This document shows, piece by piece, positions 914 to 44,700 of a stretch of 64,000 nt of DNA. Source of the stretch: an uncultured Candidatus Izemoplasmatales bacterium (GTDB taxonomy: Bacteria; Bacillota_I; Bacilli_A; Izemoplasmatales; Izemoplasmataceae); contig CAYNAA010000004.1 of assembly GCA_964395055.1 (NCBI GenBank), positions 1,830 through 65,829 of the forward strand, in the 5' to 3' direction. Position 1 is the stretch's first letter. Every line of letters begins with the position of its first letter. The position numbers and the translations under genes were made by a program. The notes under the pieces were generated by a model. The model was not told where the DNA came from. It ran no database searches and was given only the letters and a program-made list of their open reading frames with translations.

Positions 914-943
914 ATTATAACACAAAGACCGGTCTTGTGTCAA
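914..943 (-). promoter_or_regulatory. sigma70-type consensus promoter reading leftward
   Basis: Minus strand reads TTGACA (943-938), an 18-nt spacer, then TATAAT (919-914) preceded by TGT (extended -10). Confidence 0.7.
925..936. promoter_or_regulatory. putative operator, perfect palindrome AAGACCGGTCTT (in the promoter spacer)
   Basis: 12-bp perfect palindrome inside the -35/-10 spacer. An identical copy lies at 948-959. Confidence 0.55.
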
Positions 944-2556: not shown

Positions 2557-3109
2557 CGTTTTGATCCTTTTTTCGGTTCAGCGTGGTTTTCAATTCCTCG
2601 ATACGGGAGTTGAAGTTCCCCCGCAGCCGCCGGACCTCATCCACCAACAACCCAAGAAGGTCGAGTAAAGCATCGTCAGTAGTATGAAGGTTATGGCTGT
2701 CTATTATGGGTCGCCAAGATTCGGATTGCGCCGCAATTACTTGGTGCACCAATGGTTCTATCACCGATTTTATGCTCTCACGTTCCGAGTCTAACCCTTT
2801 GGTCATAGCCACCCAGGCTTCATTGCACAGGTATTCTTCCCACAGGTATGTATACCCCGGATTGACAGCTACCTTATTGGGATTAGTGCCATGGCCATTG
2901 TAATACATGGTTTTGATTGCCTGCATCTTAATAGCGTTTCGCAAATTGCGATTTTCTGTTCGCAGCCGATCAACCTCCGCCACAGCGCGTTTCCAGTAAA
3001 TACGCCAACAATCTTCACTCATTGCTCTGGTCATCCTTTTCTCCGGTGTCATCCCACCGGCGCATATACATCCTCCATCCGAAATCCTACCGCTCACGTA
3101 TCGTTGCAT
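2549..3109 (-). CDS. coiled-coil protein, paralogue set (start probably ATG 3034)
   Basis: 186-aa maximal ORF. GGAG sits 6 nt before ATG 3034 (MTRAMSEDCW...). Lies in the GC-rich island. Confidence 0.5.
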   Translation of the reverse strand: MQRYVSGRISDGGCICAGGMTPEKRMTRAMSEDCWRIYWKRAVAEVDRLRTENRNLRNAIKMQAIKTMYYNGHGTNPNKVAVNPGYTYLWEEYLCNEAWVAMTKGLDSERESIKSVIEPLVHQVIAAQSESWRPIIDSHNLHTTDDALLDLLGLLVDEVRRLRGNFNSRIEELKTTLNRKKDQNDE

Positions 3110-3193
3110 ACTCCAGCCAGCGCACCTCGTTTCCTACCCGCACCGGTAGCCACAAAAACTTGCGCACGTCTCCGTAGTTGGGGATTGTCCACC

Positions 3194-3502
3194 TCATGAT
3201 TCGCCCTCCATGATTTCCTTCACGTTCTCATCTACCTTTGCCAACGCCTCGAGCAGCGCGAGTGTGGCAGACTGGGCACGACCGGTATAATAGGAATCTG
3301 TATAAGGCAAGTAAATGCTTGCACGACTCCGGATAATACGCTCAATATGCGGCTCCCCAGATATAAAATTCCAGAGCCATCCCAGCCACCATCCGTCCAC
3401 AGTAACCGTATCTATGCTTTTAGTGGGGTCCGGGGCGATGCACTGCCATCCAGTAAATTTCCAGCAACCACACTCACAAATCCCTACTTTACCCACGCCC
3501 AC
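3194..3502 (-). CDS. hypothetical protein (GC-rich island)
   Basis: GTG start with no clear SD. The translation looks protein-like, whereas the overlapping plus-strand ORFs are S/P/H-rich junk. Confidence 0.35.
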   Translation of the reverse strand: MGVGKVGICECGCWKFTGWQCIAPDPTKSIDTVTVDGWWLGWLWNFISGEPHIERIIRSRASIYLPYTDSYYTGRAQSATLALLEALAKVDENVKEIMEGES

Positions 3503-3553
3503 GGCGCGGCTTCGGGCGTCATACCCACCAGGTGGGCGAGTTCGGCTATCTGG

Positions 3554-3811
3554 TCAGCAGTCATTGTTCTGGCCCTCCATGGTTATTTTTTCTGGTTCCC
3601 ATACTGGGCAGTCCTTTCCGTCCCACGCCCAACACTCTAACCTCTTAGACGTGTCTAGTGCTGCGTGTATGTAGTTAACCTTCGTAAAGGCTGTAGGTAG
3701 TTGAATAGGGTAGGAGCAGGATGTTGTGCAGTCGCTCTTGCGAATGTGCCCATAGCGCCGCTTCATTGTTTCGCGATCCCACCACTTGCATGTACCGCAG
3801 CATTGTCTCAT
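3554..3811 (-). CDS. Cys-rich hypothetical protein (85 aa, GC-rich island)
   Basis: MRQCCGTCKWW... ATGA start/stop overlap with ORF 3808-4188. Confidence 0.5.
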   Translation of the reverse strand: MRQCCGTCKWWDRETMKRRYGHIRKSDCTTSCSYPIQLPTAFTKVNYIHAALDTSKRLECWAWDGKDCPVWEPEKITMEGQNNDC

Positions 3812-4188
3812 TCATCGTCTTTTTCCTTCTTTTCCTGCCACTCGGTATGCACCCCTGCTACCCAGGGCAGCACGTCCGCTAAATCGTGTCCCACACCAAC
3901 ACACAACTCTGTGTATTGTGCATGATCGAAATAGAAGCGCACACCAGCGGCGTCAAACGCCAGTTCGTCTCGGTTGGCCACACGCAGGCCCAACAATGCC
4001 GCGCGCAGCTCGAAAAACTCATGCACCAATGTAGCCACCACATGAGCCCACGGCTGATCCATGCCAATACACACACGGATGTACCGGCCATCATCCCTAG
4101 GAAACTCAAAGTCTCCACCAGCACCACCGCGTGGATAGACGCGGGTGTAGGCGCCATTCACGATCAGGCCCCGGTACCGTTTGCTCAT
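3808..4188 (-). CDS. hypothetical protein (126 aa, GC-rich island)
   Basis: ATGA overlaps at both ends (4185-4188 and 3808-3811) indicate a translationally coupled chain. Confidence 0.55.
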   Translation of the reverse strand: MSKRYRGLIVNGAYTRVYPRGGAGGDFEFPRDDGRYIRVCIGMDQPWAHVVATLVHEFFELRAALLGLRVANRDELAFDAAGVRFYFDHAQYTELCVGVGHDLADVLPWVAGVHTEWQEKKEKDDE

Positions 4189-4970
4189 GATGTTTTTCCC
4201 ATCCGTGCCTCAAGCGCACGGAGTGCCTGGCCGAATTCGTTGTCGTGCCCACAGATGGATGTGATGTGGATAAGTCTGACGTGACCGTAGCGAACTCCAT
4301 TTGGAGCAATTGCTAAATACCCACTTATGCCTATACGCCACCCCGTCGGCCACTCCGGCAGCGGCTCGGGTGGCGGGATAATGCCCATCTCACGCGCGCG
4401 GGCGAGAGCAGCGTGGGCCTCCCATTCTGTGGCGAAAATGCCCTGTAGGTATTCCACAGACATGCACACGTAGAGTTTTCCGTATGGGGTGAGCCAATAC
4501 TTCCCGTCCGTCACATCCCACAGCCCGTCGTCCCGCTCGACCACCTCCCACCCGTCATCGGGTTCGCCGTTCCGCTCGGCCTGCTCCGGCTCATGGTATT
4601 CAATCAGTGCAAGCAGCGCCTCGGCGGCGGTGGCAAACACGTCATTTTCCGAGCACACAGCGCTAGTTTTACCGTCATGGCACACATAGAGATCACTATT
4701 TGCTGGACTCCTGCCATTGGCAATTGCCCAACCACTGGGGTGTCCTCCGGCACGTCGTACCCGAAACACTCCAGACCTCTCGCGTGCATTTACGAGGTCG
4801 CAGAATTTTTCGATCATAGCATCCAGGCTTTGCAAGTCAAAGCAATGGGGTCCATGATGGAGCACCCAAAAATAGGCGCCTTTTGTGTCGCGATTGCCCT
4901 GCACCCCCGCCTGTCCACGCTCCATGTAGCGTATGAGCTTGTTCTCGTCTGCCTGTGCCAAGTTTTTCAT
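4185..4970 (-). CDS. hypothetical protein (261 aa, GC-rich island)
   Basis: Longest ORF of the island. ATG 4970 overlaps the stop of the 35-aa ORF 4967-5074. Confidence 0.6.
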   Translation of the reverse strand: MKNLAQADENKLIRYMERGQAGVQGNRDTKGAYFWVLHHGPHCFDLQSLDAMIEKFCDLVNARERSGVFRVRRAGGHPSGWAIANGRSPANSDLYVCHDGKTSAVCSENDVFATAAEALLALIEYHEPEQAERNGEPDDGWEVVERDDGLWDVTDGKYWLTPYGKLYVCMSVEYLQGIFATEWEAHAALARAREMGIIPPPEPLPEWPTGWRIGISGYLAIAPNGVRYGHVRLIHITSICGHDNEFGQALRALEARMGKTS

Positions 4971-5074
4971 GTCAGTACCTCCAATTGCCGCACCTGGATT
5001 TTGTCACGATTACCCAGAAACAGCATGTCTTCCGCCTGCCCACGCTCCATGTAGCGCAAAATTTTTAGCTCCAT
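4967..5074 (-). CDS. 35-aa ORF, truncated duplicate of the N-terminus of ORF 4185-4970
   Basis: MELKILRYMERGQAEDMLFLGNRDKIQVRQLEVLT compared with NKLIRYMERGQAGVQGNRD. The 25-nt repeat at 5032-5056 and 4907-4931 differs at 1 position. ATG 5074 lies 20 nt after palindrome 5095-5106. Confidence 0.35.
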   Translation of the reverse strand: MELKILRYMERGQAEDMLFLGNRDKIQVRQLEVLT

Positions 5075-5094: not shown

Positions 5095-5106
5095 TAGAAT
5101 ATTCTA
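5095..5106. repeat. TAGAATATTCTA palindrome, exact copy
   Basis: 12/12. Marks the right edge of the GC-rich island and lies downstream of the tRNA and its hairpin. Confidence 0.9.
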
Positions 5107-5169: not shown

Positions 5170-5256
5170 TGGTAGGCGAGGCGGGGATCGAACCCGCAAG
5201 CCCATACGGGCAAGGGATTTTAAGTCCCTCGTGTATTCCAATTCCACCACTCGCCC
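5170..5256 (-). tRNA. tRNA-Leu (anticodon UAA), class II, CCA encoded
   Basis: Hand-folded. Acceptor GGGCGAG/CTCGCCT. D-arm GTG..CAC with GG in the loop. Anticodon stem AGGGA/TCCCT with loop CTTAAAA. Long variable arm GCCC-GTAT-GGGC. T-arm GCGGG-TTCGATC-CCCGC. Discriminator A, then CCA. 87 nt. Confidence 0.9.
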
Positions 5257-5257
5257 T

Positions 5258-5269
5258 TAGAATATTCTA
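5258..5269. repeat. TAGAATATTCTA palindrome, exact copy
   Basis: 12/12. Ends 1 nt before the 5' end of the tRNA. Confidence 0.9.
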
Positions 5270-5340: not shown

Positions 5341-6417
5341 TTACTCTGAGAGAATGTCATTCACCATCTCCCAAAAGCGATCTGGGTCCTTGTCCCGAGC
5401 TTCTTCAATACGAATAAGCTCATCTTCTAAATCTGGTAATTCTTCCTGAGCAACCTTGTCACCCAGAGCTGCATCTAATTGTCGTGCCAAGATTTGACTA
5501 CGACAAACATTTCGCGCACTTTTCAGTTTCTTTGGCCCCCATGTTTTTGGGGCTTTTTCTTTTCGTGGCTTGTCTTTGTCTGCTCTCTTCTGTTTCAACC
5601 ACTCTTCAGCTTCTTCTTCATTTTTGATACCATCGACTTCGATGGCTGTTGCAGATGTAAACTTGATTGCATCTTTATCGCCATCGCAGTATTGCTTAAA
5701 TTCTTCTTCAATGAGCGAATGCGCTGAAGCGATCCGCTTAAAATACTGCACTTTTCCACGCCATGTTTCCAAACGGGCTTGTTCAATGGTAGTTACCTTC
5801 TTCGATCCCACCATTGTGAACCCGTGCTTTCTCAATTCATCTAAACGAGCATCCAATGCCAGTTTGGCTCGCGAGCCTCCTAGCTTATAAAACAGGGGAG
5901 AAAGGATATTTGCGATCTCACCTTCAGTTCGATTCTGTCGGACATAGCGTTTCACAGCAAGATAGAGCTCAAACATATCGAGCTCTTCTTCACTGCCATG
6001 ATCCATCATAAGGCGCTGTCGCGTTGGCTCATCAAGATTCAAGACAAGACGATAGGGAACCTGTCCCTCGTAGTGCTTCTTGAAAAACTCTGGCTCGTTA
6101 TCCCGGAGCCACATCAAAGCTCGATGACGTAGAAAACCACAAATACCACGCGGCTTCGCATCATCTTTAGTGGTGTTCATATCCCCCACGATCAAGGGAG
6201 TGCGAATAAAACCATCAGCTTTGAGCTCTGCAATTTTTCGTGTCACTCGCTCATCATATTTGTCAGTGCGGCGAACATTCCACTTTGTAGAATAATCTAC
6301 ATCATCGAGATTGAAATAGTGAAGTTCCTTGTCAGTTTCGATTTCGATTTGTGTGTGCAACTCCGCCATTATTTCAGTGTCAGCATTTAATTCTTCTTGT
6401 ACATGCTCAGTGGTCAT
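5341..6417 (-). CDS. ParB/Srx-superfamily N-terminal domain protein (paralogue C)
   Basis: TPLIVGD...GICGFLRHRALMWL matches the ParB-box GxxRxxA pattern. Lysine/glutamate-rich C-terminus. Confidence 0.5.
   Translation of the reverse strand: MTTEHVQEELNADTEIMAELHTQIEIETDKELHYFNLDDVDYSTKWNVRRTDKYDERVTRKIAELKADGFIRTPLIVGDMNTTKDDAKPRGICGFLRHRALMWLRDNEPEFFKKHYEGQVPYRLVLNLDEPTRQRLMMDHGSEEELDMFELYLAVKRYVRQNRTEGEIANILSPLFYKLGGSRAKLALDARLDELRKHGFTMVGSKKVTTIEQARLETWRGKVQYFKRIASAHSLIEEEFKQYCDGDKDAIKFTSATAIEVDGIKNEEEAEEWLKQKRADKDKPRKEKAPKTWGPKKLKSARNVCRSQILARQLDAALGDKVAQEELPDLEDELIRIEEARDKDPDRFWEMVNDILSE
6288..6299. repeat. palindrome variant TAGAATAATCTA (11/12), inside a CDS
   Basis: One mismatch. 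It is the reverse complement of the variant at 6727-6738. Confidence 0.6.
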
Positions 6418-6440: not shown

Positions 6441-6452
6441 TAGAATATTCTA
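6441..6452. repeat. TAGAATATTCTA palindrome, exact copy
   Basis: 12/12. Its TAG (6452-6450) is the stop of ORF 6450-6713. It lies 23 nt before ATG 6417. Confidence 0.9.
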
Positions 6453-6713
6453 CACGAACAGCCTTTCACCAATCACATCGAAAGTTAATGCCCGCGCATT
6501 AACGATATATATAGAACACATCCGCGCGGATGCGAGAATAGCATCGAATTCTTCTTGTGATTCTGGGATCACAGAAGCTCGCCTAAGTGGTTTTTCACTT
6601 AGGATCACTGGCAAATGATTCTTTTTTACCAGCCAATCAAAGGAAGGAGGATCATGAGATCTGATCCCGATACTCTTGATTTCGCATTGTCGCATGTTCA
6701 GTAAGTGTGCCAT
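6450..6713 (-). CDS. hypothetical protein (87 aa), first gene after the tandem promoters
   Basis: ATG 6713 lies 13 nt after palindrome variant 6727-6738, with AAAGGGA as SD. Confidence 0.55.
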   Translation of the reverse strand: MAHLLNMRQCEIKSIGIRSHDPPSFDWLVKKNHLPVILSEKPLRRASVIPESQEEFDAILASARMCSIYIVNARALTFDVIGERLFV

Positions 6714-6726
6714 CGTGTTTCCCTTT

Positions 6727-6738
6727 TAGATTATTCTA
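6727..6738. repeat. palindrome variant TAGATTATTCTA (11/12)
   Basis: Lies between the 14-bp repeat array and the SD of ORF 6450-6713. Confidence 0.7.
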
Positions 6739-6740
6739 CC

Positions 6741-6852
6741 TTTAGCACAAAGTCTTTAGCACAAAGTCTTTAGCACAAAGTCCTCAGCACAAAGTCTTTA
6801 GCATAAAGTCTTTAGCATAAAGTCTTTAGCACAAAGTCTTTAGCATAAAGTC
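6741..6852. repeat. 14-bp direct tandem repeat x8 (TTTAGCACAAAGTC and variants)
   Basis: Eight contiguous units in exact 14-bp register. Variants are C/T at unit position 8, and one unit starts CTC. Lies in the predicted transcribed leader. Confidence 0.9.
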
Positions 6853-6870
6853 TTTCGCCATCATATCTCT

Positions 6871-6900
6871 ATTATATCACAGAAGTAGGTTCAATGTCAA
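6871..6900 (-). promoter_or_regulatory. sigma70-type consensus promoter reading leftward
   Basis: Minus strand reads TTGACA (6900-6895), an 18-nt spacer, then TATAAT (6876-6871) preceded by TGA (extended -10). Confidence 0.7.
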
Positions 6901-6915
6901 GTCTTCCACTATTAT

Positions 6916-6945
6916 ATTATAGTAGTTTTTTTGATCGAAAGTTAA
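6916..6945 (-). promoter_or_regulatory. second promoter, -35 abutting the palindrome
   Basis: Minus strand reads TTAACT (6945-6940), an 18-nt spacer, then TATAAT (6921-6916). Shares the 16-mer AAAAACTACTATAATA with the promoter at 27112-27140. Confidence 0.5.
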
Positions 6946-6957
6946 TAGAATATTCTA
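6946..6957. repeat. TAGAATATTCTA palindrome, exact copy
   Basis: 12/12. Lies 3 nt after the TAA stop of ORF 6961-7845 and directly upstream of the -35 at 6940-6945. Confidence 0.9.
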
Positions 6958-8163: not shown

Positions 8164-8783
8164 TTTTCCTCCTTAGAATATTCTAATCCCTGTTGGAGTA
8201 CATCTCTTATTGCTTGTAAGTGTTCATCCTTAGCCTTAAAACACTTACGTTGATAAACCATATACTCTATAAGCATGGGTAATTCTGTTCGTATTTCTGC
8301 GATAAAACGAGCATTGTTCTCTTTATCTTTTAGAGGTAAACTTGTCACAGATCCAGAGACTACACCTCCTCTTTGTATATTCTTTCCGTAAGTAGTGTCA
8401 CATATTAAATGAGCCTTTGAGTTATTTTCTTTAACAACCCATGGTGCCCGTGTAGCTAGATCATTAAGGGCTTCCAAATACTTTACAACATTAAAACCTA
8501 GTGTCATCATATCTATAGCTAATTCTGTAATATAGCCATGGTTGTTAAAACAATTTTCAAAGAAAGCTAATTTATTTTTATGTGCCTCACATGAATATAG
8601 GATCAAAGTTGAATGGTTAGCAGTGGTTGTTCGTAGCATAAAATTTGAGCTTACTAAATCTACGGAATCAGGATGCTCAAAGGTAATAGTCAAAGCATGT
8701 GTTGTAGATTTCTTACAAACAATACATTCTCGTCCATAAGACTCCATTTTAACTAATGCAGCATGTCCTTCATAGTAAGTCAT
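8160..8783 (-). CDS. hypothetical protein (207 aa)
   Basis: ATGA overlap with the amidase gene at 8780-8783. Palindrome 8174-8185 is embedded in its last codons (LEYSK). Confidence 0.6.
   Translation of the reverse strand: MTYYEGHAALVKMESYGRECIVCKKSTTHALTITFEHPDSVDLVSSNFMLRTTTANHSTLILYSCEAHKNKLAFFENCFNNHGYITELAIDMMTLGFNVVKYLEALNDLATRAPWVVKENNSKAHLICDTTYGKNIQRGGVVSGSVTSLPLKDKENNARFIAEIRTELPMLIEYMVYQRKCFKAKDEHLQAIRDVLQQGLEYSKEEK
8174..8185. repeat. TAGAATATTCTA palindrome, exact copy
   Basis: 12/12. Read as L-E-Y-S in ORF 8160-8783. On the minus strand it is fused to AGGAGG, 10 nt before ATG 8163. Confidence 0.9.
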
Positions 8784-11259: not shown

Positions 11260-11526
11260 TCAGCGGTCCATTGTATGAATATTGACAATACGTTTGTTAA
11301 TTTCTCTAAGATAATTTTTGGCCAAATCACTTTTAGGTAAACTAGAATATTCTAGCTCACAGTGTGAGAATCTATTCCCGAAAAAATAAGGAATAACTGC
11401 CACCGTGCCTTCTTCGTTTGTGAAGCCATCTAAAGTAAAATCACTAAGTGAAAGACTTTTTTCTTTCCCATCATTTATTGCTGCCCAAAAACGTGCAGTT
11501 AATTTTTGCCAAGATAATTCTTTCAT
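11260..11526 (-). CDS. hypothetical protein (88 aa)
   Basis: ATGA overlap with the upstream ORF at 11523-11526. Contains palindrome 11343-11354, read as ELEYSS. Confidence 0.55.
   Translation of the reverse strand: MKELSWQKLTARFWAAINDGKEKSLSLSDFTLDGFTNEEGTVAVIPYFFGNRFSHCELEYSSLPKSDLAKNYLREINKRIVNIHTMDR
11343..11354. repeat. TAGAATATTCTA palindrome, exact copy (14-bp CTAGAATATTCTAG)
   Basis: 12/12, extended to 14 bp. Lies inside a CDS. Confidence 0.9.
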
Positions 11527-11762: not shown

Positions 11763-12003
11763 GATTATCAATCTCAGTAGCAATTAAAGCTGCGGCAACC
11801 ACAAGTTTTATTTTTCCCGATTGATGGCGTATAGTTTCAAATACATCTAAGGCTTCTTCTGTTTGCCAAGGCCAGTCTGAGCGAATATCACTCAATATAG
11901 CCATTGCTGCCATAGTTAATGTTCCCGGTGAATGGGTATCACTCGTTCCCGGTGAATGGGTATCACTCATTTGTGCTTTTGCGATCAGATCAACAGCTTT
12001 CAT
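11746..12003 (-). CDS. hypothetical protein with duplicated SDTHSPGT octapeptide
   Basis: An exact 24-bp tandem duplication at 11921-11968 encodes the repeat. Confidence 0.5.
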   Translation of the reverse strand: MKAVDLIAKAQMSDTHSPGTSDTHSPGTLTMAAMAILSDIRSDWPWQTEEALDVFETIRHQSGKIKLVVAAALIATEIDNHDSEI

Positions 12004-13038: not shown

Positions 13039-13050
13039 TAGAATATTCTA
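13039..13050. repeat. TAGAATATTCTA palindrome, exact copy
   Basis: 12/12. Its TAG (13050-13048) is the stop of ORF 13048-13257. Confidence 0.9.
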
Positions 13051-13259: not shown

Positions 13260-14657
13260 TTAAGTCTCCTGTACATAGTAGAGTTTTTTCATTGCCCGAG
13301 TAATGGCGATGTATTCTAAGTTATCCTCTTGAATCATCTGCCATTCTTTCGTGCATTTCGGATGTGGAAGAAGCTCGGGGTGGAGCAAAAAGACTCGATC
13401 AGTTTCTAAACCTTTACTTCGATGAATAGTGGCGCATACCACACCCTCCAAATTGTTGGAGAACAATTGCTCAATACCTTTTTCAATACCTTCTCGGCCA
13501 AAGGCTTCAAGCAATGCTCTCACAGTATCCACTTTATCACGAATTGCTACCAACCGAGCTTCATCTTTAATTCGCTCAGTCATTTGTTGCTCATACTCAT
13601 CGAGATCATCAACATGCTTTACCAGCTCCAATAAGCCTTCCCCTATTTCTCGACCTTTGACAATGGCTTTGCGTTGGTTACGGATAAGGGAAAGAGCGAA
13701 TTGAACAATAGGAGCAGTTGTACGGCATAAAACATAATCCCCCTCTTGAACAGTTTCTAAAAGATCCTCACGAGAAATACTCGTGACTTGACCTTCTTCA
13801 GCATCTTCAACTGATTCAATTTGAGGGACAATCCTTTTTGCCTCTTCAACAATGGCACGAGCACAACGGTAGCATATGCTCAACGGCAGAACATCTGCCG
13901 AAAAACGTGCAACGATATTATCAATGGCATCATGACTTGCGCCGCGAAAACCATAGATCGCTTGTCTTGTATCCCCTACAGCAATAACTCGTTTTGCAAC
14001 CCGATGAACCAAATCAATCTGTGCAGGGGATAAGTCTTGAGCTTCATCAACAAATACATAGTCATAGGGGGGCATTTTGAGATCATGATATATCGGAAGA
14101 AAAATCATATCATCAAAATCAATGACTTTCTTTTTCTGGATACCTAATTTATGTGTATTGATTGCATGTGAAATAAAACTTTCATCTTGACAATTAATAC
14201 CAAAATGATCGATAAGCCAATCAATTTCTCGAGGGCTTGGTTCAATGATATTATGGGCTTTGAAAAGGGCCACTAATTGAAGAGTAGCTGAACGAATCTT
14301 AAAGAGACGTTGTTTGGCCTCTTTATCATCCTTTGGGTTATCAAAAATATCGAACCAAAGAATATTTTGATTCTTGTTATTATTGACTTTAACCCAACCC
14401 AAGTTTTTTCGGATCATTCTAAATCCAAGAGAATGAAGTGTAGAGACTTCAACATGCTGGGGGGCACGTTGGCTTAGTTCCTCGGCAATATGCTTATTGA
14501 AGGCAATAAAAAGTGTTTTCTTATCTTTTGGTAAGAATTCCAAAGCCTTAACAATTGTGCTAGTTTTTCCTGAACCAGCCACCGCATTTATTACCGCATT
14601 ACCACAACCATTCTGGATGTATTCAAACACGGCTTTTTGATATCTATTTGGGATCAT
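13260..14657 (-). CDS. UvrD/Rep/PcrA-type SF1 DNA helicase
   Basis: AVAGSGKTS (Walker A), VFVDEAQDL (motif II), GDTRQAIYGFRGA (III), TIHRSKGLE (V/VI) and ITRAMKKL. Confidence 0.85.
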   Translation of the reverse strand: MIPNRYQKAVFEYIQNGCGNAVINAVAGSGKTSTIVKALEFLPKDKKTLFIAFNKHIAEELSQRAPQHVEVSTLHSLGFRMIRKNLGWVKVNNNKNQNILWFDIFDNPKDDKEAKQRLFKIRSATLQLVALFKAHNIIEPSPREIDWLIDHFGINCQDESFISHAINTHKLGIQKKKVIDFDDMIFLPIYHDLKMPPYDYVFVDEAQDLSPAQIDLVHRVAKRVIAVGDTRQAIYGFRGASHDAIDNIVARFSADVLPLSICYRCARAIVEEAKRIVPQIESVEDAEEGQVTSISREDLLETVQEGDYVLCRTTAPIVQFALSLIRNQRKAIVKGREIGEGLLELVKHVDDLDEYEQQMTERIKDEARLVAIRDKVDTVRALLEAFGREGIEKGIEQLFSNNLEGVVCATIHRSKGLETDRVFLLHPELLPHPKCTKEWQMIQEDNLEYIAITRAMKKLYYVQET

Positions 14658-15366
14658 TATTTTCTCCTAGTAAGTAGTTTATTCGATGTCGCATACGTTT
14701 TCTTTTGTTGTTAACAGTTACTTTTGTAACTCCAAGTTGTCTGCCAATTTCTTCATCCGTGTAGCCTTCTACTCTTTGAAGAATAATTCGTTTCTCTGTT
14801 TCTGTAAAAAGATCTGAATTCAAGACCTCTTGGTATAACATTGGAAAGGCATCATCTCTTTTTCCAATATATCCTGGATGATATCCCATCTTTTCGCTAT
14901 CGGCTTCATTTCTAGGAGTAAGATTTTCGATATGCTCAAATTCTTGAAACAAATCATTTAGGTCATACTCTTTTAATTTAATAATCAGCCATGCCGAATT
15001 TATTGGGGGTGCTACGACATGATCCTTTTTTATATATGTCTGAAGATAGCCCCAGATACTTTTATGTATATAGGCAGAAAAATTGTTATGTAGAGTCATT
15101 ACCTCGTTGTTAGCAACTTTTCTTGTGCAAATAATTAAATGCAGTAATCCTTGAGCGAATAAATCTTCAGCTTTGAATGGATGAAACACGCTCAACCTAG
15201 CAGCTATGGCGGCAACCAGTCGAATATGACCTTTAATTAATTCATCGATTGCCGCAGCGTCACCTTCCCTTGCTTTTTTTAAGTAATATTGTGTCTCATC
15301 TGCTGTCAGTGCTTTAGGGGGATTTTTAATTCCCCGAAATGACCTTCTCACTTCTTCTCTCCACAA
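14644..15366 (-). CDS. sigma-70 family (ECF-like) sigma factor
   Basis: A region-2-like helix (LIKGHIRLVAAIAARL) and a region-4 HTH (RIILQRVEGYTDEEIGRQLGVTKVTVNNKRKR). No ATG in the first ~90 codons. The track start is TTG. GTG 15351 follows GGAGAGAAGAA. Confidence 0.7.
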   Translation of the reverse strand: MWREEVRRSFRGIKNPPKALTADETQYYLKKAREGDAAAIDELIKGHIRLVAAIAARLSVFHPFKAEDLFAQGLLHLIICTRKVANNEVMTLHNNFSAYIHKSIWGYLQTYIKKDHVVAPPINSAWLIIKLKEYDLNDLFQEFEHIENLTPRNEADSEKMGYHPGYIGKRDDAFPMLYQEVLNSDLFTETEKRIILQRVEGYTDEEIGRQLGVTKVTVNNKRKRMRHRINYLLGENNDPK

Positions 15367-15790
15367 TCCAAAAGATTATTGGTTCCCCTAATTCAAGTGT
15401 CTCTTTCCCAGTTACTGGATCAATGAGTAAAACATTCTCATGATCCCAAGCAAAAGCATGTGCCGGTCCTGAAGCTTGTCGTACCAATACTCCTGAGTAA
15501 TTTCGCATATAATTCCAAATTCTTGCCTTAAAGTTAGGATGCTTTCCAATAGGAAGTAAATTACCTTCAAAGTCAAAAGCTTGTATGATTTCGGTAATAG
15601 AATATTCTATATTCAAAACTTCAATGATTTCTTGTATGTGAAAACACTGATACGGAAAATCCGTGATATATTTTTTATTTAACCCCGTGTGCCCGATATT
15701 ATATATAAGGTCATTGACATCCTTGTTTGTTACCATAGCAAAAGCCGTTGGCAAACATGCACTTATATTAGGTTGTTTCTGTGGTCTCAT
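15326..15790 (-). CDS. hypothetical protein, possible papain-like/C39-like cysteine peptidase
   Basis: N-terminal Q..NISACLPTAFAM (a Q...C pattern) and a later PAHAFAWD (His). Weak, by eye only. Confidence 0.35.
   Translation of the reverse strand: MRPQKQPNISACLPTAFAMVTNKDVNDLIYNIGHTGLNKKYITDFPYQCFHIQEIIEVLNIEYSITEIIQAFDFEGNLLPIGKHPNFKARIWNYMRNYSGVLVRQASGPAHAFAWDHENVLLIDPVTGKETLELGEPIIFWIVERRSEKVISGN
15598..15609. repeat. TAGAATATTCTA palindrome, exact copy (in CDS)
   Basis: 12/12. Read as I-E-Y-S-I. Confidence 0.9.
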
Positions 15791-16086: not shown

Positions 16087-17000
16087 TTGTCTCCTTCACT
16101 GTTATCTCTATTATAACACATTTTCTCTTTTATGTCAAGAGTTACGGTTTCCGCAATCGAAAACAGTTTTGCTACAGGACCGTCATTTACGATAACGGTA
16201 TCCCATTCCGTAAAATTATCAAGAGCAGTATCTGGTACTGATGTAGAATATTCTATTCGTGGATTTTCTATCTTAAATAGCTTTCCTTTTTTCTTGTGTA
16301 TTGCTTTTGCTTCATCGGGAAACCTAACATCTGTAATAATTACAACATTAGCATTATGGGGTGTATTTAATAGATACGCTGTCCAAGTATTTTCCCAAAC
16401 TTGCTCACGTATCGCGGGCGTGCCCATTCGTATTAATGTTTCGCGTGCGGTCAGGCCCGTAGCAAGTGTTAAATCTTTATCTTGGGGCTTATATCTATAA
16501 TGCATCTCAGACCTAAATCCTGCCCAGCCATACAATCTATGACATATTTCATATAAAGGAGAAGCGAATGCAGTAATATGTGTAGTGAGACCAAGAGCAT
16601 TTAATTTTGCCGAAAGCACTAAAGCAAAAGTGTCTTTCCCTACTCCACTTTTATGCCCTAATCCAATGAAAAAAGGAATGAAGGGATAGATGACTTCTCT
16701 TTCTTTTATGGCTTTTTGATTAGTGACTTCTCTTTCTTTTGCGGCTTCTCTTTCTTTTGCGACTTCTCTTTCTTTTGCGACTTCTCTTTCTTTTGTGGCT
16801 TCTCTTTCTTTTGTGGCTTCTCTTTCTTTTTCACCAACACAACTACAAATAAGCAGTTTGCATTTATTGTAGTCCATAATTAAACCTTTTCCATGACATA
16901 AATTACAATTAAGATTTGCGTTAGGGTATTGGGGCATCTCCCCTGGATCAATACTAAAAATCAGCTGATCGTAATCTTGAGTTTCAAGCTCTCGCATCAT
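16083..17000 (-). CDS. deoxynucleoside monophosphate kinase with N-terminal zinc knuckle and KEREAT repeat linker
   Basis: CNLCHGKG. Six KERE(A/V)(A/T/V) hexapeptides. P-loop GLGHKSGVGKDT, the G..SGKDT type seen in phage dNMP kinases. Confidence 0.6.
   Translation of the reverse strand: MMRELETQDYDQLIFSIDPGEMPQYPNANLNCNLCHGKGLIMDYNKCKLLICSCVGEKEREATKEREATKEREVAKEREVAKEREAAKEREVTNQKAIKEREVIYPFIPFFIGLGHKSGVGKDTFALVLSAKLNALGLTTHITAFASPLYEICHRLYGWAGFRSEMHYRYKPQDKDLTLATGLTARETLIRMGTPAIREQVWENTWTAYLLNTPHNANVVIITDVRFPDEAKAIHKKKGKLFKIENPRIEYSTSVPDTALDNFTEWDTVIVNDGPVAKLFSIAETVTLDIKEKMCYNRDNSEGDK
16244..16255. repeat. TAGAATATTCTA palindrome, exact copy (in CDS)
   Basis: 12/12. Read as I-E-Y-S-T. A GATAAT lies 23 nt downstream on the minus strand. 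Confidence 0.9.
16722..16829 (-). repeat. 18-bp in-frame tandem repeat x6 (KEREAT linker)
   Basis: Residues 58-93 of ORF 16083-17000. A degenerate seventh unit follows. Confidence 0.85.
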
Positions 17001-17013
17001 GATGTGACTCCTT

Positions 17014-17060
17014 TACCAAAAGTTTTTACTAAGAGTTTTTACTAAGAGTTTTTACCAAAG
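17014..17060. repeat. 13-bp tandem repeat x~3.5 at a gene junction
   Basis: TACCAAAAGTTTT, TACTAAGAGTTTT, TACTAAGAGTTTT, TACCAAAGATCTC. The last unit contains the stop of ORF 17052-17945. Confidence 0.8.
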
Positions 17061-18334: not shown

Positions 18335-18641
18335 AAGTCGCCTTGATTTTGCGGATCAAGTCTTCTCGATTTTCTCCTGCCAACCCTAAAAAAGTACCTA
18401 AATCACGTAATTCATAAAGTGTTAGTGTCTCTAATTTTTGTCGTTTATGCCATTTACGCCATTTCTTCAATACTCCTAAATTCTCAGCCATAATAAGACG
18501 AACAAGTTGTTTCTTAATTCCTGTAGAAGATTCATTATAGAATATTCTAAATTCAGCGGAATTAATTAATCTTTCAATTGCTCTGAGATTATTAATCCGG
18601 TCTTTAACACTTTTAATAATATCATTTATTTGTCCGCCCAT
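18288..18641 (-). CDS. hypothetical protein (117 aa)
   Basis: Same-strand packing. Contains palindrome 18538-18549. Confidence 0.5.
   Translation of the reverse strand: MGGQINDIIKSVKDRINNLRAIERLINSAEFRIFYNESSTGIKKQLVRLIMAENLGVLKKWRKWHKRQKLETLTLYELRDLGTFLGLAGENREDLIRKIKATYGSEVKGVCTKVIKR
18538..18549. repeat. TAGAATATTCTA palindrome, exact copy (in CDS)
   Basis: 12/12. Read as R-I-F-Y. Confidence 0.9.
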
Positions 18642-21010: not shown

Positions 21011-21883
21011 TTATCTACCTGGAATACTAAGTTCTCCCGCTTTGGGAATACCTTCTTTTCTAACTTCATATACTTTACCGATCTCTGAAAAATGTGTCTG
21101 TAAGTCAGTCATTAAATCTAAATCAGAGATGTTGCCAGCTGCCCAAGCAAGCATCCTAGTGTGTATACCACTATACCCTCCAGACTCAAAATAATGATCG
21201 ATAAGATTTTGGATTTCTTCGGCTGAACGTGCGCGTGAGATTTTTGCTCGACTTTTTCGTGTGGCAACACTATCAGGAACCTTTATTTTTATGGGTCCAC
21301 TATACCCTTTTAACCGTTTATCTTTAATAGCTCTAGCAAATGCAAAACGATCACGTCTATTCTTCATGGAATAAAGTTTTCGTATTTGCTCATTTGTAAG
21401 CATTTCATCTTCAGCCATTTGCTGAATTTCTGGTTCAAGCTCTAAAAGATAAAGTCTAGGTTGAACCCAACCCGTGCTTCTTCCAATTCTTTTTTCAATT
21501 TCTCCACGATCCAATCCCATTCTAACGAATTTTGAAAGGGCATTTGCCTCTTGCATAATTGTCAAATCATGACGATCAATATTTTCTTGGAGATTTACAA
21601 TTGCAGCATCGGTTTTACTCAACTCCTTTTCACTTAAAGTAAAAGGCATTTCCTTCCACTCAAGAATTTTCATACAGGCATAACACCTGGTATAACCAGC
21701 AACGAGATCATATTTTTCCTTGATCCCCTCATGTGGTTTTACCTTGCGAATCAACGGTAATTGGTGTAAGCCTTCTTGTTTGATGCTCTTTGCTAAATTG
21801 AGAGCATGTTCATGCCTGATTCGTCCACGATTATTCGCGTCCCAATCTATGTGGACTTCATCCCATTTAAGTTTTAACTCCAT
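21011..21883 (-). CDS. ParB-like protein with HTH (paralogue B)
   Basis: LPLIRKV...YDLVAGYTRCYA gives the GxxRxxA box, followed by an HTH-like IGRSTGWVQPRLYLLEL. Confidence 0.6.
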   Translation of the reverse strand: MELKLKWDEVHIDWDANNRGRIRHEHALNLAKSIKQEGLHQLPLIRKVKPHEGIKEKYDLVAGYTRCYACMKILEWKEMPFTLSEKELSKTDAAIVNLQENIDRHDLTIMQEANALSKFVRMGLDRGEIEKRIGRSTGWVQPRLYLLELEPEIQQMAEDEMLTNEQIRKLYSMKNRRDRFAFARAIKDKRLKGYSGPIKIKVPDSVATRKSRAKISRARSAEEIQNLIDHYFESGGYSGIHTRMLAWAAGNISDLDLMTDLQTHFSEIGKVYEVRKEGIPKAGELSIPGR

Positions 21884-24786: not shown

Positions 24787-25208
24787 CGTAATACTCCTGT
24801 AGCTCTAAGTTGGTCTTCAACCTTCTTTAGCAAGATTTCTCCGCTTTTTTCCTTATTAGAATATTCTATGAGGGTTATCCAATCATAAATGGTTCCTGAT
24901 AGTATAGCTAAGGAAAAACCATACTTATCTGTATCCAAAATTGCAATATCAATCCCTGCAAATAAATCTTGCACCTCTTTTAGCATACTAAAAGGAAAAG
25001 TGCCCAAAAACAATAAGGGCGTCAATTTCGCTGCTTTTTTCTTTCCCAAATAATGTTTGAGAGTTATCGGTAAAGCTAGGAAATGATCTAAGTCAACCCC
25101 AAAATTCGCAGCTTCTTCTAAGACCCGTTCTTCCCTATTCCAATTAATGATATTTTCATAAGTAGCGGTTGCCATTGCAAAGGGTGTAATTTTTATGTCG
25201 AAAGTCAT
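24768..25208 (-). CDS. hypothetical protein (146 aa)
   Basis: Same-strand packing. Contains palindrome 24857-24868 (IEYSN), 70 nt before the SNF2 start. Confidence 0.5.
   Translation of the reverse strand: MTFDIKITPFAMATATYENIINWNREERVLEEAANFGVDLDHFLALPITLKHYLGKKKAAKLTPLLFLGTFPFSMLKEVQDLFAGIDIAILDTDKYGFSLAILSGTIYDWITLIEYSNKEKSGEILLKKVEDQLRATGVLRWWQTK
24857..24868. repeat. TAGAATATTCTA palindrome, exact copy (in CDS)
   Basis: 12/12. Confidence 0.9.
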
Positions 25209-26018: not shown

Positions 26019-26969
26019 TTATTGAGCATTTTCGACAAGGGCTTCAGATTCTTCAGCTTTCTTGGCTTCTTCTCGTTGACGACGCTCTTCAGCACGCTTT
26101 CTCTTTGCCTCTTGTTCCTGTTCCCACTTTTCACGCTCAATCTGCTCTGTTTTGGGATCAACCCGAAGAACCCAATCGATAGCGAGATCAAAAGCTTCAA
26201 CAGGCGTCATGTTGTCAGTGACAAGATCCGCGCGTGCCTTATGAGTTTCCTGTTCATCCAGAATATCCGTCTTAGAACGCACACGAGGAAGAAGTTTGAA
26301 TGTCTCAGCCCCGGCTTTCTTTCCGGCTCGCTGAGCAGTCTTGATCTGTTCAAGGCGTGCCTTTGCGGCTTCCACGAAAACTTCAGGAGACTGTTCACTT
26401 GCCCGCTTAACCCATTGAAGCTGTTCGTCTGCCGGAAGCTTCGCAAGCTGTTGAGCATTGGTAAGTGGAATATCACCATTGTCAACGCTTTCCTGAATTT
26501 CCGGTACCAACTTGGATAGATTCATACGGGCCGTGATCCAAGCGGGGGAAACATTCATTTCCTCGGCAAGCTGACTGATAGTTACATCATCATTCAGCGC
26601 CAAATAGTGCATGATCGCGCGACCATATTCCGCAGGCTTAGTCTTAATGTTATGCAGATTCGCTTGAATCTGAAGACTAAGTGTTTTGGATTCATCAGCA
26701 TCCAAAATTTGTGCCGGAATTGTATCATAATTCAACAATTCACAAATAGCCACACGCTGAAGGCCATCAATGAGGATGTAAATCTCTTCGCCGGTTTCCT
26801 CATCAATGGTCTCTCGAACGGTGATCGACTGTAAAACGCCTTCCTTTTCAATGGAACGCTTCAGAAATTCAAATTCCTCTGATTCAGTTTTGGCTTCTCG
26901 TAATGCCCTTTCACCTGCTTTGATTTTGCTTACTTGTACTTCTTCGATTCGTCCACGATTTGCTTCCAT
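26019..26969 (-). CDS. ParB-like protein with HTH (paralogue A)
   Basis: LQSITVRE...YILIDGLQRVAICELL gives the ParB box. HTH TISQLAEEMNVSPAWITARMNLSKL. K/E-rich C-terminus. Confidence 0.7.
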   Translation of the reverse strand: MEANRGRIEEVQVSKIKAGERALREAKTESEEFEFLKRSIEKEGVLQSITVRETIDEETGEEIYILIDGLQRVAICELLNYDTIPAQILDADESKTLSLQIQANLHNIKTKPAEYGRAIMHYLALNDDVTISQLAEEMNVSPAWITARMNLSKLVPEIQESVDNGDIPLTNAQQLAKLPADEQLQWVKRASEQSPEVFVEAAKARLEQIKTAQRAGKKAGAETFKLLPRVRSKTDILDEQETHKARADLVTDNMTPVEAFDLAIDWVLRVDPKTEQIEREKWEQEQEAKRKRAEERRQREEAKKAEESEALVENAQ

Positions 26970-41784: not shown

Positions 41785-44700
41785 TTATGCGGGTTGAATC
41801 CTTATGCCAAACAATTTGACATCATCCGTAAGATCATCACGAGTACATTTTAATCTAAAGATAAAGAATGGTCCATCTCCTTCTGGAGTAAAAGTATATT
41901 CTTTCTTCTCATAACCAAAAGTATTCCCATCAGATGTTGCTATCGCTGTTTCATCAGTTGGCCAATAAGTTTCAGCTTGAGAGGGAAAACCATCGGTAGG
42001 ATTTAATGCTTTTGCTCCGAAGTTCCAAAATAACCTTTCATCCTCAGATCCCCCATGCCAAAAGATTGTGAGTTTAAGTACGCCCCCTGCATATTCATCA
42101 GGTGGTGCAAAAGTCCACACATAGTATTCATCATCTGTTTCAGTAAGTTCTAAATGAGGGGCAACAAAATTCTTAAAAATATCAACTGGTCCATAGTTCA
42201 TTTCACCTAAGCGTCCTGCTTCTTGGGGAGCAAACCAATGTGACCATAATTTATTAACTGCTCCTACTCCGCCTTCAATAGTACCAGTAATCGTTGTTGT
42301 ACCATCTAAATTAACCCTATCATTGAAGTTAGTCTCATTTTCAACTTCAATTGGTCCACTTGCTGAATGTATAGGGGCACCAATTGTAATAATACTATCA
42401 GTTATCGATGTATTTCCAATTTCCAAATTCGGTAAAGAGAAAGACCCAACGGTAAGTGTTCCGTCAATATTTACATCTCCTGCAAAGATAGAAGTAACAC
42501 CTGTCCCTAATACTCGAATTTTTTCATCAGTTACAATTGTACCTTTTGCTTTTATCTCACCATTTTCATAAAGAGTTGCACCAGAATCCGCATATCCACT
42601 GCCGACTTGAATTTCATCGAAGGCAAATAATCCACCTGTATCATTGATGATAGAGCCACTTACAGTTAAATCACCTGCAATTTTGAGATCACCATTTGTA
42701 TAAATTGTAACTCCACCGTCATCGAAACCCTCAGTATTTCCTATGGGATTTATTTTAAGGTCGGTTTCACTTATAAAATCAAGATCACCAGTAAATGTTA
42801 AACTACCATAAAATTCACTAACTCCTTCCATCGTAAATTTAAGTTGATCAACACCATAATCAGATAACTTTAATTGATTATCATCACTGATCCGATAAGT
42901 TAATTCCCCTATATCTGGGTAATATCTAAGCCAATGGCCCTCTCCGCTGGTAATATATATATTATCTGGCTCTAATGTAATAGTATCACCAATAGTTAAA
43001 GTATTATTAACAGTCATGGTATCAACATTTTGATCTGCTGTACCACCTCCAATAATACTTCCATCGATCTCTAAATCTCCTGCGATTTTAATCTTTGTAT
43101 TTCCATCATCTGATATCGTTATACCGCTATTATTATATCCACCCAGAAAATGAACACTATTGGCAAAGTATACATGCCCAGCAAAATTACTATCTGTCCC
43201 CGAGTTAGTTTGATTTAATTTATCAAAAGTTATTTTTCCTACTCCACCTGTTTTTTCAATTATTACTAAACCATCGCCAATACTTAAATAATTAGCAATA
43301 TATACAGTCCAATTAAAGTCACTTCGATCATTGAATGTGGCTGTTCCATCTATTTCCAAATTCCCCGAAACATCTACTTCAAATTGGTTAGAATCTCCGA
43401 CTTGAAGAGTATCAAATACTCCTGTTGATCCACCTCCCCCTGAATTAATTGTCCCATCAACTGTTAAATCACCGCTAATTTGAATATTTCCATCCGCTGA
43501 AATTGATACCCCACCGCCAGTATAACCATAGTCACTTCCATCTTTACCAAGATCAATTCGAGCAGTATTAGATGGTAGAATAATATCTCCATTGTTGTAT
43601 CCTGTTATCCCTGCACTTGTGCCTACGATAACAGCACCGCCGCTAGGAGTATCCCCAGCAGAATCTGATCCAACATTTATTCTAGTAAGAGCACCAATTA
43701 AATCGTCAGTATGGATTCGTCCAGCAGATATAATTCGTCCGTCTTCATAAAGATCTGATCCACCATCGTCATAACCTCCACCAACAGTTAAGCTAGTGAA
43801 AGCATTACTGGGATTACTTGGATCAATTTCTGTGCCATTAAGAATTAATGATCCGTCTATAACTACGTCACCAGCATCTGTCATAGTAATATTACTACCA
43901 ATAGTTAATTGCGTATCTGTATGAATATTATTATTGGTTTGGAATAAGCCATTTGTTGATATCGTTGCACCGGCGCCGCCACCATATCCTCCACCAACAG
44001 CCAAACTTTCTACTGCACTTACATCTCCCCCATCCCAACCAATAATATCACCACCAATCTCAAGATCACCAGTTAATACTATTGTTCCGTCACTCTTAAT
44101 AATTACGCCAGTAGTTGTGTGGTCTCCTGCTTCAAGATTACCATCGGTTTGTACATTACCACCTGGAGTAACAGTTAAACCTGTATCACCATAACCTCCA
44201 TATAATAGGATATTAGTATTATTTGCTTCAAGATACTCCCCGCCAAGAATATTACCATCAGTGCTTAAATCTCCATTTCCATCTATTGTTAATCCTGTAT
44301 CACCATAACCCCCTCCAATAATAATACTATCAAACTCATTCCCGCCAGTTCCACTTCCACCATTAATAGTTCCATCGACAGTTAAATCACCTGCAATTTT
44401 TAGATCACCATTGGCTAAGATAGATACCCCTCCTTCATCATACCCATAGGAAGAATAATCTAGAATCCCGCCTATATGAATATCTTTCTTAAAGATACTA
44501 CGATCAGGTAAGAAAGTAAACCAATTACTTAAAGTATCATCAACAGTATAAAAACGAATTTCATGGACATCACTAGCTTCTGATCCTGGCGCATTATTAA
44601 AAGATATTTCTCCATTGATTCTTGACCCATCATATTTATGTGTAATTTCAGCATTATCATGTAAAAACCATATATGACAATTTCCACTTGCTCCTGTTTC

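Follow-up and report, generated by a model that had tools for sequence, protein, structure and literature searches.

A tandem array of eight 14-bp repeats in the predicted leader of a phage operon encoding a ParB/KorB-like protein: a candidate operator array

Introduction

In plasmids and phages, short homogeneous tandem repeats near promoters are mostly protein-binding iterons, as in R1 parC, the pSM19035 omega heptads and tubC. In R1 parC/ParR, pSK41 parC (type II), the omega heptads and TP228 parH-ParG (type Ib), the repeats lie at the promoter of the operon that encodes their binder, are present in 7-10 copies and double as operator and centromere. Here we analyze an element of similar layout and copy number in a 64-kb stretch of phage DNA (contig CAYNAA010000004.1 of assembly GCA_964395055.1, positions 1,830 to 65,829; hereafter the window). 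It consists of eight abutting 14-bp units, GACTTTRTGCTAAA, arranged head-to-tail on the minus strand (6741-6852) between a consensus promoter and the genes of an 87-aa protein and a 358-aa ParB/KorB-like protein. The array and its uniqueness, the promoter and the ParB/KorB-like fold were established in this work, and an autoregulatory iteron array is the best working model for the locus.

Unlike the repeats of the type Ib/II systems, the array is located wholly downstream of its promoter, and its 14-bp unit has an internal dyad. These systems further differ from the locus in their ParM or ParA motor, which was not found in the window, and in their ribbon-helix-helix (RHH) adaptor, which was not identified here, the 87-aa protein being an orphan. 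The analogy with type Ib/II centromeres, drawn in an earlier sequence-only reading of this DNA, thus holds for the tandem repeats by the operon promoter (downstream of it, not overlapping). Beyond this it finds no support, as no ParA-type NTPase was found in the window, the operon is without Pfam matches and the structural model of the 87-aa protein is uninformative; membership in that class fails on the NTPase partner, and the 87-aa protein is at most a putative adaptor.

ParB-family proteins of the helix-turn-helix (HTH) type are also known to act on direct repeats next to their own operon. In F plasmid sopC (12 x 43 bp) each repeat includes an inverted repeat, and in Deinococcus radiodurans the cisII and cisMP sites consist of 18-bp and 14-bp direct repeats bound by ParB2 and ParB3; upstream of their own operons, ParB-family proteins of this species are reported to bind direct-repeat arrays of 11 x 18 bp, 8 x 18 bp and 3 x 14 bp (PMC7671480). 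Both systems differ from the present locus in having ParA partners, a role in replicon maintenance and longer or spaced units, and sopC lies downstream of its operon.

The operator of RK2 KorB (OB) is 13 bp long, the same size as an imperfect palindrome contained in each array unit, and shares TTTAGC with the array. KorB itself, a CTP-dependent clamp and repressor (PMC11790492), is the top structural match of the 358-aa model, and like KorB the 358-aa protein would be regulatory rather than purely segregational. However, TTTA and TAAA are 3 nt apart in the array unit and 5 nt apart in the RK2 operator, the eight array sites abut at one locus whereas KorB operators are dispersed, and KorA or IncC partners were not found. 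The locus thus falls outside the KorB-operator class, both for its operator sequence and for want of these partners.

Results

Tandem Repeats Finder reported the array at 6740-6855 with a period of 14, 8.3 copies, 93% matches, no indels and a score of 197, which made it the top-scoring row in the 64-kb window. A pattern search with GACTTTRTGCTAAA over the 64 kb, allowing up to two mismatches, returned the eight minus-strand units and one further match at chance level, and none of 100 dinucleotide shuffles reached nine matches. The eight 14-bp direct repeats seen by the sequence-only reading were thereby confirmed. Dispersed single units with up to three mismatches outside the array were at chance level (52 matches versus about 46 expected for the whole window). 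Since the array is regular and unique in 64 kb, it suits a single cis site and not a dispersed signal. The same eight units are present in an independent Logan assembly of run SRR11308339, which possibly derives from the same reads as the deposited genome and is therefore uninformative on copy-number stability.

From unit 1 to unit 8, the R position of the unit reads A, G, A, A, G, G, G and G. Unit 5 (6783-6796), one of the G units, carries two additional A-to-G changes (GCTGAG), and all three positions that vary among units do so between A and G on the sense strand. Ahead of unit 1 lies a degenerate partial unit, GCGAAA. The imperfect 13-bp palindrome of each unit, CTTTR-TGC-TAAAG, has perfect 5-bp arms in the A-variant (CTTTA-TGC-TAAAG) and a G·T position in the G-variant, and reads CTTTG-TGC-TGAGG in unit 5.

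The promoter ahead of the array (6871-6900, minus strand) is of the sigma-70/sigma-A type, TTGACA-18-TATAAT, matches the consensus, as had been claimed, at 12 of 12 positions and has an extended -10 TG (GTGATATAAT). Its -10 element ends at 6871, and from this spacing transcription is expected to start near A6864. The array, which is separated from the promoter by 18 nt of non-repeated sequence (AGAGATATGATGGCGAAA, minus strand), would then cover about +12 to +123. At the other end, GG (2 nt) separates it from TAGAATAATCTA (6727-6738, minus-strand reading), which differs by one mismatch from TAGAATATTCTA, a 12-bp palindrome dispersed in the window. This variant palindrome is followed by the Shine-Dalgarno (SD)-like motif AAAGGGA (6720-6726, minus), 6 nt ahead of the ATG at 6713 of the orphan 87-aa open reading frame (ORF; 6450-6713, minus), and then by the 358-aa gene (5341-6417, minus), which is preceded by an SD and was recognized through its structural model. 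The coordinates agree with two earlier statements, namely that the array ends within 2 nt of a palindrome variant followed by the SD and the 87-aa ORF, and that the order is promoter, array in the predicted leader, small ORF and ParB-like gene.

Minus-strand promoters at 943..914, 6900..6871 and 16138..16110 are the only three of the window with 12 of 12 consensus positions and TG, and presumably serve as early promoters for the host polymerase. These three TTGACA-17/18-TGnTATAAT promoters also have a common downstream TATAAT(A/G)G(A/G)G, and the one at 16138..16110 sits within the 3' end of an ORF resembling a deoxynucleoside monophosphate (dNMP) kinase. An equivalent strong sigma-70-type promoter was found upstream of the homologous gene, or of its small upstream genes, in at least five related phages: in L001 (TTGACATAAGC...TGCTATAAT), twice in L003, once in L011, twice in L020 (TTGACT) and once in L021. 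As these relatives keep the promoter without the array, the promoter is a conserved feature of the early operon and the array is not. With a conserved 12/12 promoter the operon would be strongly driven and therefore a plausible target of feedback.

The 358-aa protein had no match in Pfam, PHROG, NCBIfam or PADLOC, nor in the PDB by sequence, and 14 close homologues were found among 5.8 billion clusters. An AlphaFold2 (AF2) model made from these 14 sequences had a predicted local distance difference test (pLDDT) score of 84.8. Its best fold matches in the PDB, with a Foldseek probability of 1.00, were RK2 KorB (8qa9/8qa8), Spo0J of Thermus thermophilus (1vz0), ParB of Caulobacter crescentus (7bm8) and PadC; the PDB matches comprised 150-260 aligned columns in the N-domain and the DNA-binding region. 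Among viral models (BFVD), phage ParB/Spo0J-like proteins ranked first, likewise with a probability of 1.00. An exhaustive hidden Markov model search yielded 197 remote homologues, and 13 of the 62 that were sampled contained Pfam ParB_N. The term ParB-like is therefore supported by the fold match together with transitive sequence evidence through the remote homologues. The predicted parts of the protein are an N-domain, which in the model has the ParB/Srx (CTPase-type) fold, a helical putative DNA-binding region and C-terminal helices. Box II, with the consensus GxRRxxA in the wider family and GERR in KorB, reads GF(L/V)RxxA in all 14 close homologues; its first arginine is replaced by leucine in 13 of them and by valine in one, and the 358-aa protein has GFLRxxA.

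Together with the 358-aa protein, the window encodes three ParB-fold proteins. The other two, at 21011-21883 and 26019-26969 (minus), are canonical with ParB_N and HTH_ParB, and their best NCBIfam match is Noc. The 358-aa protein had been named a paralogue (ParB-like paralogue C). Its ParB-like fold is upheld by the KorB, Spo0J and ParB matches and by ParB_N in remote homologues, but as a sequence paralogue it finds no support, since hhalign against the two canonical proteins gave a probability of about 1% or less, with no profile similarity, and Pfam gave no match.

No parS site within three mismatches was present in the window. Sites within three mismatches of the KorB operator TTTAGCSGCTAAA were absent from the array and not enriched in the window. 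The suggested KorB half-site, TTTAGC, is indeed present in seven of the eight plus-strand units, but it amounts to just one 6-mer, with no full operator in the array. Walker A motifs of the ParA type were not found in window ORFs of at least 50 aa, a negative that covers neither the 8.7 kb of genome beyond the window nor ParM-like folds, for which no structural search was made. No partner for the ParB/KorB class (ParA/IncC or KorA) was recognized among the window's genes, which include no ParA-type ORF and, close to the locus, small neighbours without family match.

We propose that the array is a DNA iteron/operator array that lies in the first transcribed stretch and is bound by a protein, be it the ParB-like one or some other factor, and we assign this reading a probability of about 0.35. 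The proposal is based on how such arrays generally behave in plasmids and phages, on the dyad-symmetric 13-bp unit, on the location at +12 of a perfect promoter and on the KorB/ParB-like gene of the operon, with the D. radiodurans arrays as precedent. The array would act as a cis-acting DNA element of eight abutting candidate iterons, each with its imperfect 13-bp palindrome, behind a promoter of the strongest host-polymerase type in this phage, and a sequence-specific DNA-binding protein would coat it. The prime candidate for this binder is the 358-aa ParB/KorB-like product, with the 87-aa product or a host factor as alternatives. Once bound, the protein would stop or slow elongation from the promoter, and the early operon would thereby regulate itself; if the binder is of the ParB type, the array would in addition be the sole nucleation or loading site on the phage genome. 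The transcription start is inferred, as are protein binding, the choice of binder and the effect on regulation.

For the 87-aa ORF, no homologue besides itself and no Pfam, PHROG, NCBIfam or PADLOC match was found. A single-sequence AF2 model had a pLDDT of 48 with no clear beta-alpha-alpha pattern and was uninformative. Homology to the small proteins at the same position in related phages was also considered, and none was found. The ORF is probably a real gene because its palindrome-SD-ATG context is like that of other genes of this phage.

The array was absent from every examined relative that carries the ParB-like gene, and its pattern was absent from the viral and genome contig collections searched. 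Phage records contained no near match to the locus, and tblastn with the 358-aa protein gave no hit in phages. The comparison of copy number among related phages that had been suggested therefore has nothing to compare. In L013/L014 the leader of the homologous gene harbors three tandem hairpin-type palindromes with compensatory arm changes, the one feature that in part parallels the array. Upstream of the homologue in L006/L007, a 21-bp x 25 array was considered as a second leader array and rejected: codon positions 1 and 3 vary while position 2 almost never does, which marks coding heptads, and the ORF overlaps the next start. In L006 (1-616) this array, which adjoins the ParB-like gene, encodes heptads of the type [SR]G[ND]C[ST]xL. 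L019 has a 15-bp x 15 array (5404-5635) next to the ParB-like gene, read as pentapeptide-like. In addition, in two lineages of relatives (L009/L010 and L013/L014, position 1) the contigs of independent assemblies break at an identical place, 110-125 nt upstream of the ParB-like gene, and a repeat or a genome end may be located there.

This distribution is also what would be expected of a neutral or nearly neutral minisatellite, that is, a 14-bp intergenic segment expanded by slippage and without dedicated function. The window contains further short tandem duplications, at 17012-17055 (13 bp x 3.4), 2307-2350 (14 bp x 3.5), 1306-1344 (15 bp x 2.6), 1057-1131 (27 bp x 2.8) and 11921-11968 (24 bp x 2), which suggest that slippage in intergenic spacers is frequent in this genome. 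In the first three, the repeats fill the space from one gene's stop codon to the SD of the following gene, and their units include the stop codon. Close to the array itself, the 19 nt following the -10 element of a second, weaker promoter-like site (6899-6917) are 79% alike to 6848-6866 behind the main -10, and this likeness of 6917-6899 and 6866-6848 suggests an additional local duplication. The unit moreover resembles the extended -10 region of promoters in this phage group, CTTTGTGCTAtaat (L011), TTTTGTGCTAtaat (L021) and TTTATGCTAtaat (L001): CTTTGTGCTA and L011 agree in all of 10 nt, TTTTGTGCTA is found in L021, and L001 is matched by TTTATGCTA. The unit's sole polymorphic base coincides with the R of the TRTG motif. 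The array may thus have originated by duplication of promoter-proximal sequence. However, eight copies are far above the 2-3.5 of the other arrays, the three point differences among units imply that the array persisted for some time without collapse, and an array situated at +12 of a perfect promoter, within an early operon's leader, probably has some consequence. We therefore regard purely neutral expansion as rather improbable, though deserving of some weight.

The palindrome TAGAATATTCTA that flanks the array occurs at 21 sites in the window (16 canonical and five with one mismatch) versus 0.5 expected, and 18 of the 21 lie within 700-25000. The canonical sites are 712-723, 872-883, 1036-1047, 2101-2112, 5095-5106, 5258-5269, 6441-6452, 6946-6957, 8174-8185, 11343-11354, 13039-13050, 15598-15609, 16244-16255, 18538-18549, 24857-24868 and 47930-47941. 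About half of the sites are located 10-23 nt ahead of a start codon, directly 5' of the SD. Relatives have clade-specific palindromes, mostly just 5' of SDs, GTAGCAATTGCTAC in L001, GGTAGTAGCTACTACC in L021, CAGAATGATTCTG in L013/14, CAGAATATTCTG in L019, GAGAAGCGGCTTCTC in L020 and TTGTAA-N2-3-TTACAA in L003/L009, with variable central spacing within one phage and, in some copies, stem extensions of their own. These features suggest that the dispersed palindromes are a hairpin-type expression or processing signal and not fixed dimer operators. Accordingly, the 358-aa protein as binder of the dispersed palindrome was unsupported: the palindromes are gene-start signals across the early region, clade-specific, with variable centres and copy-specific stems. 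Six-mers shared by the array with this palindrome's half-site and with the P1 operator (AAAGAC in AAAGACCGGTCTTT) were at chance level after multiple comparisons. The hairpin-like palindromes raise the prior that leaders in these phages act at the RNA level.

A structured RNA leader is an explanation of this kind. The units would pair into one long bulged hairpin or into shifting registers and thereby govern the early mRNA at its 5' end. The structure could be processed by an RNase III-type enzyme, could protect the 5' end from 5'-exonuclease, or could offer an RNA-binding protein up to eight weak hairpins (5-bp stem, UGC loop). The array is downstream of the predicted start of a perfect promoter, and when folded alone it is predicted to form a single long hairpin with regular bulges (-30.5 kcal/mol). 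For the 165-nt leader the folding energy was -37.8 kcal/mol (z = -2.8), a value attained by 2 of 200 shuffles, and the variable A/G positions keep A-U or G-U pairing within the unit hairpin. The small palindromes of related phages (5-8-bp arms, centres of 0-4 nt, some copy-specific stem extensions, just 5' of SDs) are likewise hairpin-like, and the three tandem hairpin-type palindromes of L013/L014 occupy the same leader. Long imperfect hairpins in early leaders made by host polymerase are known from the lambda N leader and the T7 early RNase III sites; unlike these, the predicted hairpin would arise from direct repeats of a quasi-palindromic unit and would bulge at regular intervals. On the other hand, the hairpin of a single unit is unstable at about 0 kcal/mol, with a pairing probability of at most 0.31 in one unit and below 0.01 in the others, and the centroid structure of the leader is nearly unpaired. 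Wobble-compatible substitutions are expected by chance with P of about 0.1-0.2, as enumerated over transitions. A search for known RNA families gave no Rfam match for the leader, and because the array is unique there are no covarying homologues. We consider an RNA-level function of this type a possible, though less probable, account of the array than its binding by a protein as DNA.

Transcribed tandem repeats between a promoter and a protein gene are also found, in the same order, in type III toxin-antitoxin loci (toxIN, abiQ/antiQ) and in phage pseudo-ToxI. By analogy, the leader could be a decoy or sponge RNA, as the sequence-only reading had considered, whose repeats would sequester a toxin or an RNA-binding protein of the host much as ToxI, pseudo-ToxI or CsrB-type RNAs do; the resemblance to such loci and the strength of the promoter speak for this. 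The locus does not belong to the type III class: its unit has 14 nt, whereas the units of known type III antitoxins, which are pseudoknotted RNAs, have 34-45 nt; nothing resembling a terminator separates the array from the 87-aa ORF; and neither protein matches ToxN/AbiQ, any Pfam family or any PADLOC model. A GGA-type motif is likewise absent from the unit, except in unit 5. Of the functions weighed here, that of a decoy appears the least probable.

The leader can also be read as a chain of overlapping mini-ORFs (6731-6864, minus). An ATG at the predicted transcription start, 7 nt past the -10 (6862-6864), is a candidate leaderless start of a 12-codon ORF, MMAKDFMLKTLC. It is followed by seven six-codon ORFs, six encoding MLKTLC and one MLRTLC, and by a final five-codon ORF, MLKVE, an arrangement that was checked mechanically. 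Each mini-ORF has its RTG start 1 nt ahead of the stop of the one before it (RTGCTAA, or RTGCTGA in unit 5), and the final stop (6733-6731) lies within the variant palindrome, where the T-to-A change that makes the palindrome a variant is the source of this in-frame stop. In a translational relay, ribosomes on a leaderless transcript from AUG 6864 would be passed along the chain by termination and reinitiation and released 17 nt before the 87-aa ORF, and the number of repeats would set ribosome delivery downstream or mRNA lifetime. ATG/GTG starts, TTA/TTG and CTA/CTG leucine codons and TAA/TGA stops are kept across the units. Even in unit 5 the stop is kept (TAA to TGA), as is leucine (CTA to CTG), and a new GAGGA arises 4 nt ahead of the next GTG. 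In L011, an ATG 7 nt past the -10 opens an 8-codon ORF whose TGA overlaps the ATG of the first gene. Such ORFs, however, arise automatically from any 14-nt unit with RTG and TAA so spaced, the SD-like motif is confined to unit 5, and as 6 of 14 possible transitions are silent, two silent changes among the three observed are unremarkable (P of about 0.4). We know of no described system that works as a mini-ORF relay, and we judge it highly unlikely. Taken as evidence for either an RNA hairpin or mini-ORFs, the substitution pattern was discarded, being compatible with both and within chance (P of about 0.1-0.4).

The iteron-like layout adjoining the AT-rich promoter region further recalls a replication origin, which would be activated by transcription and bound by a phage initiator such as the 901-aa DUF5906 primase-helicase; the phage encodes this DUF5906-containing protein and a DNA polymerase of its own. 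Several points speak against an origin: a 14-bp period without spacers is atypical for origin iterons, the replication genes are 12-20 kb away with no initiator gene adjoining, the array is absent at the syntenic locus of relatives, and composition skew gave no signal. An origin function is accordingly very improbable.

Upstream of the promoter and first in locus order, a gene for a 294-aa PD-(D/E)XK-like protein (minus) has its stop at 6961. A canonical palindrome (6946-6957) directly follows this stop and abuts the -35 of the weaker promoter-like site, TTAACT-18-TATAAT (6916-6945, minus; 10/12). The PD-(D/E)XK gene is syntenic in L001 and L003. Downstream of the array, another canonical palindrome (6441-6452) overlaps the stop of the 87-aa ORF, 23 nt ahead of the ATG of the 358-aa gene, and a further copy (5258-5269) lies 2 nt from tRNA-Leu(UAA) on its 5' side. 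This tRNA gene (5170-5256, minus) is downstream of the 358-aa gene, a position that it also has in the distant relative L003 (6805-6887). Beyond it, a GC-rich island (~3000-5000; 53-57% GC versus ~37% for the genome), with ORFs of 261 aa, 126 aa and smaller sizes without family matches, was probably acquired horizontally.

The window represents a siphovirus with a 1996-aa tape-measure protein, only weak coat-protein matches and no close cultured relative. The region 41785-58031 (minus) encodes this tape-measure protein and a 3419-aa ORF with a weak distal-tail match, unusually large tail genes for a genome of ~72.7 kb. An N4-like phage with hairpin promoters for a virion RNA polymerase, as the 3419-aa ORF might have indicated, was rejected, since the neighbouring gene is a tape-measure gene and the giant ORF has just a weak tail match. 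A Bacillota host is suggested by a SigF/G-like sigma factor, the Noc-like ParBs, strong AGGAGG-type SDs and TRTG-type promoters. The sigma factor (14644-15366, minus), which resembles sporulation sigma F/G, hints at a phage-specific class of promoters.

The perfect promoter 943..914 is accompanied by two copies of the perfect palindrome AAGACCGGTCTT that bracket it (914-975, minus), one upstream of the -35 and one in the spacer. This pair has a classic repressor-operator layout for a putative regulator. Upstream of the same promoter, the region 953-1137 comprises a 45-bp unit x 2 (953-1034), a palindrome copy and a 27-bp unit x 2.8 (1057-1137), and may be a regulatory or an origin region. The dNMP-kinase-like ORF (305 aa) contains an 18-bp/36-bp coding tandem repeat (16691-16830) of KEREV/A-type hexapeptides in its N-terminal part.

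Discussion

The ranking of the readings given above rests on sequence alone, and several observations weigh against a protein-bound operator array. Relatives that have the ParB-like gene without the array show that the protein family does not need it. Abutting 14-bp palindromes would give ParB-type dimers overlapping footprints, and in unit 5 the DNA dyad is weakened. Since no ParA was found in the window, a role in segregation is unsupported. Other short intergenic tandem duplications in the genome mean that the expansion may be mutational, and the use of hairpin-like palindromes with variable loops as expression signals in this phage group favours, a priori, a role at the RNA level.

Phages commonly encode ParB-like proteins that have no ParA, orphans whose functions are open (PMC12704722). 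If functional, the array would be a known kind of iteron array newly paired with an orphan, divergent ParB/KorB-like protein of a phage. Should the protein bind it, the locus would exemplify, in a phage, gene control of the ParB type that involves no partition ATPase and in which the sites are packed very densely. A KorB-like clamp in an apparently lytic phage, loaded at a compact array of eight sites and silencing its own early operon, would be a less exotic reading than the mini-ORF relay but would still be new. If there is no binding, the array would lend itself well to testing what tandem repeats in a 5' leader do at the level of RNA or of translation. As the DNA targets and roles of the widespread orphan phage proteins that have the ParB-CTPase fold are largely unknown (PMC12704722), the locus offers a candidate target that is easily tested biochemically.

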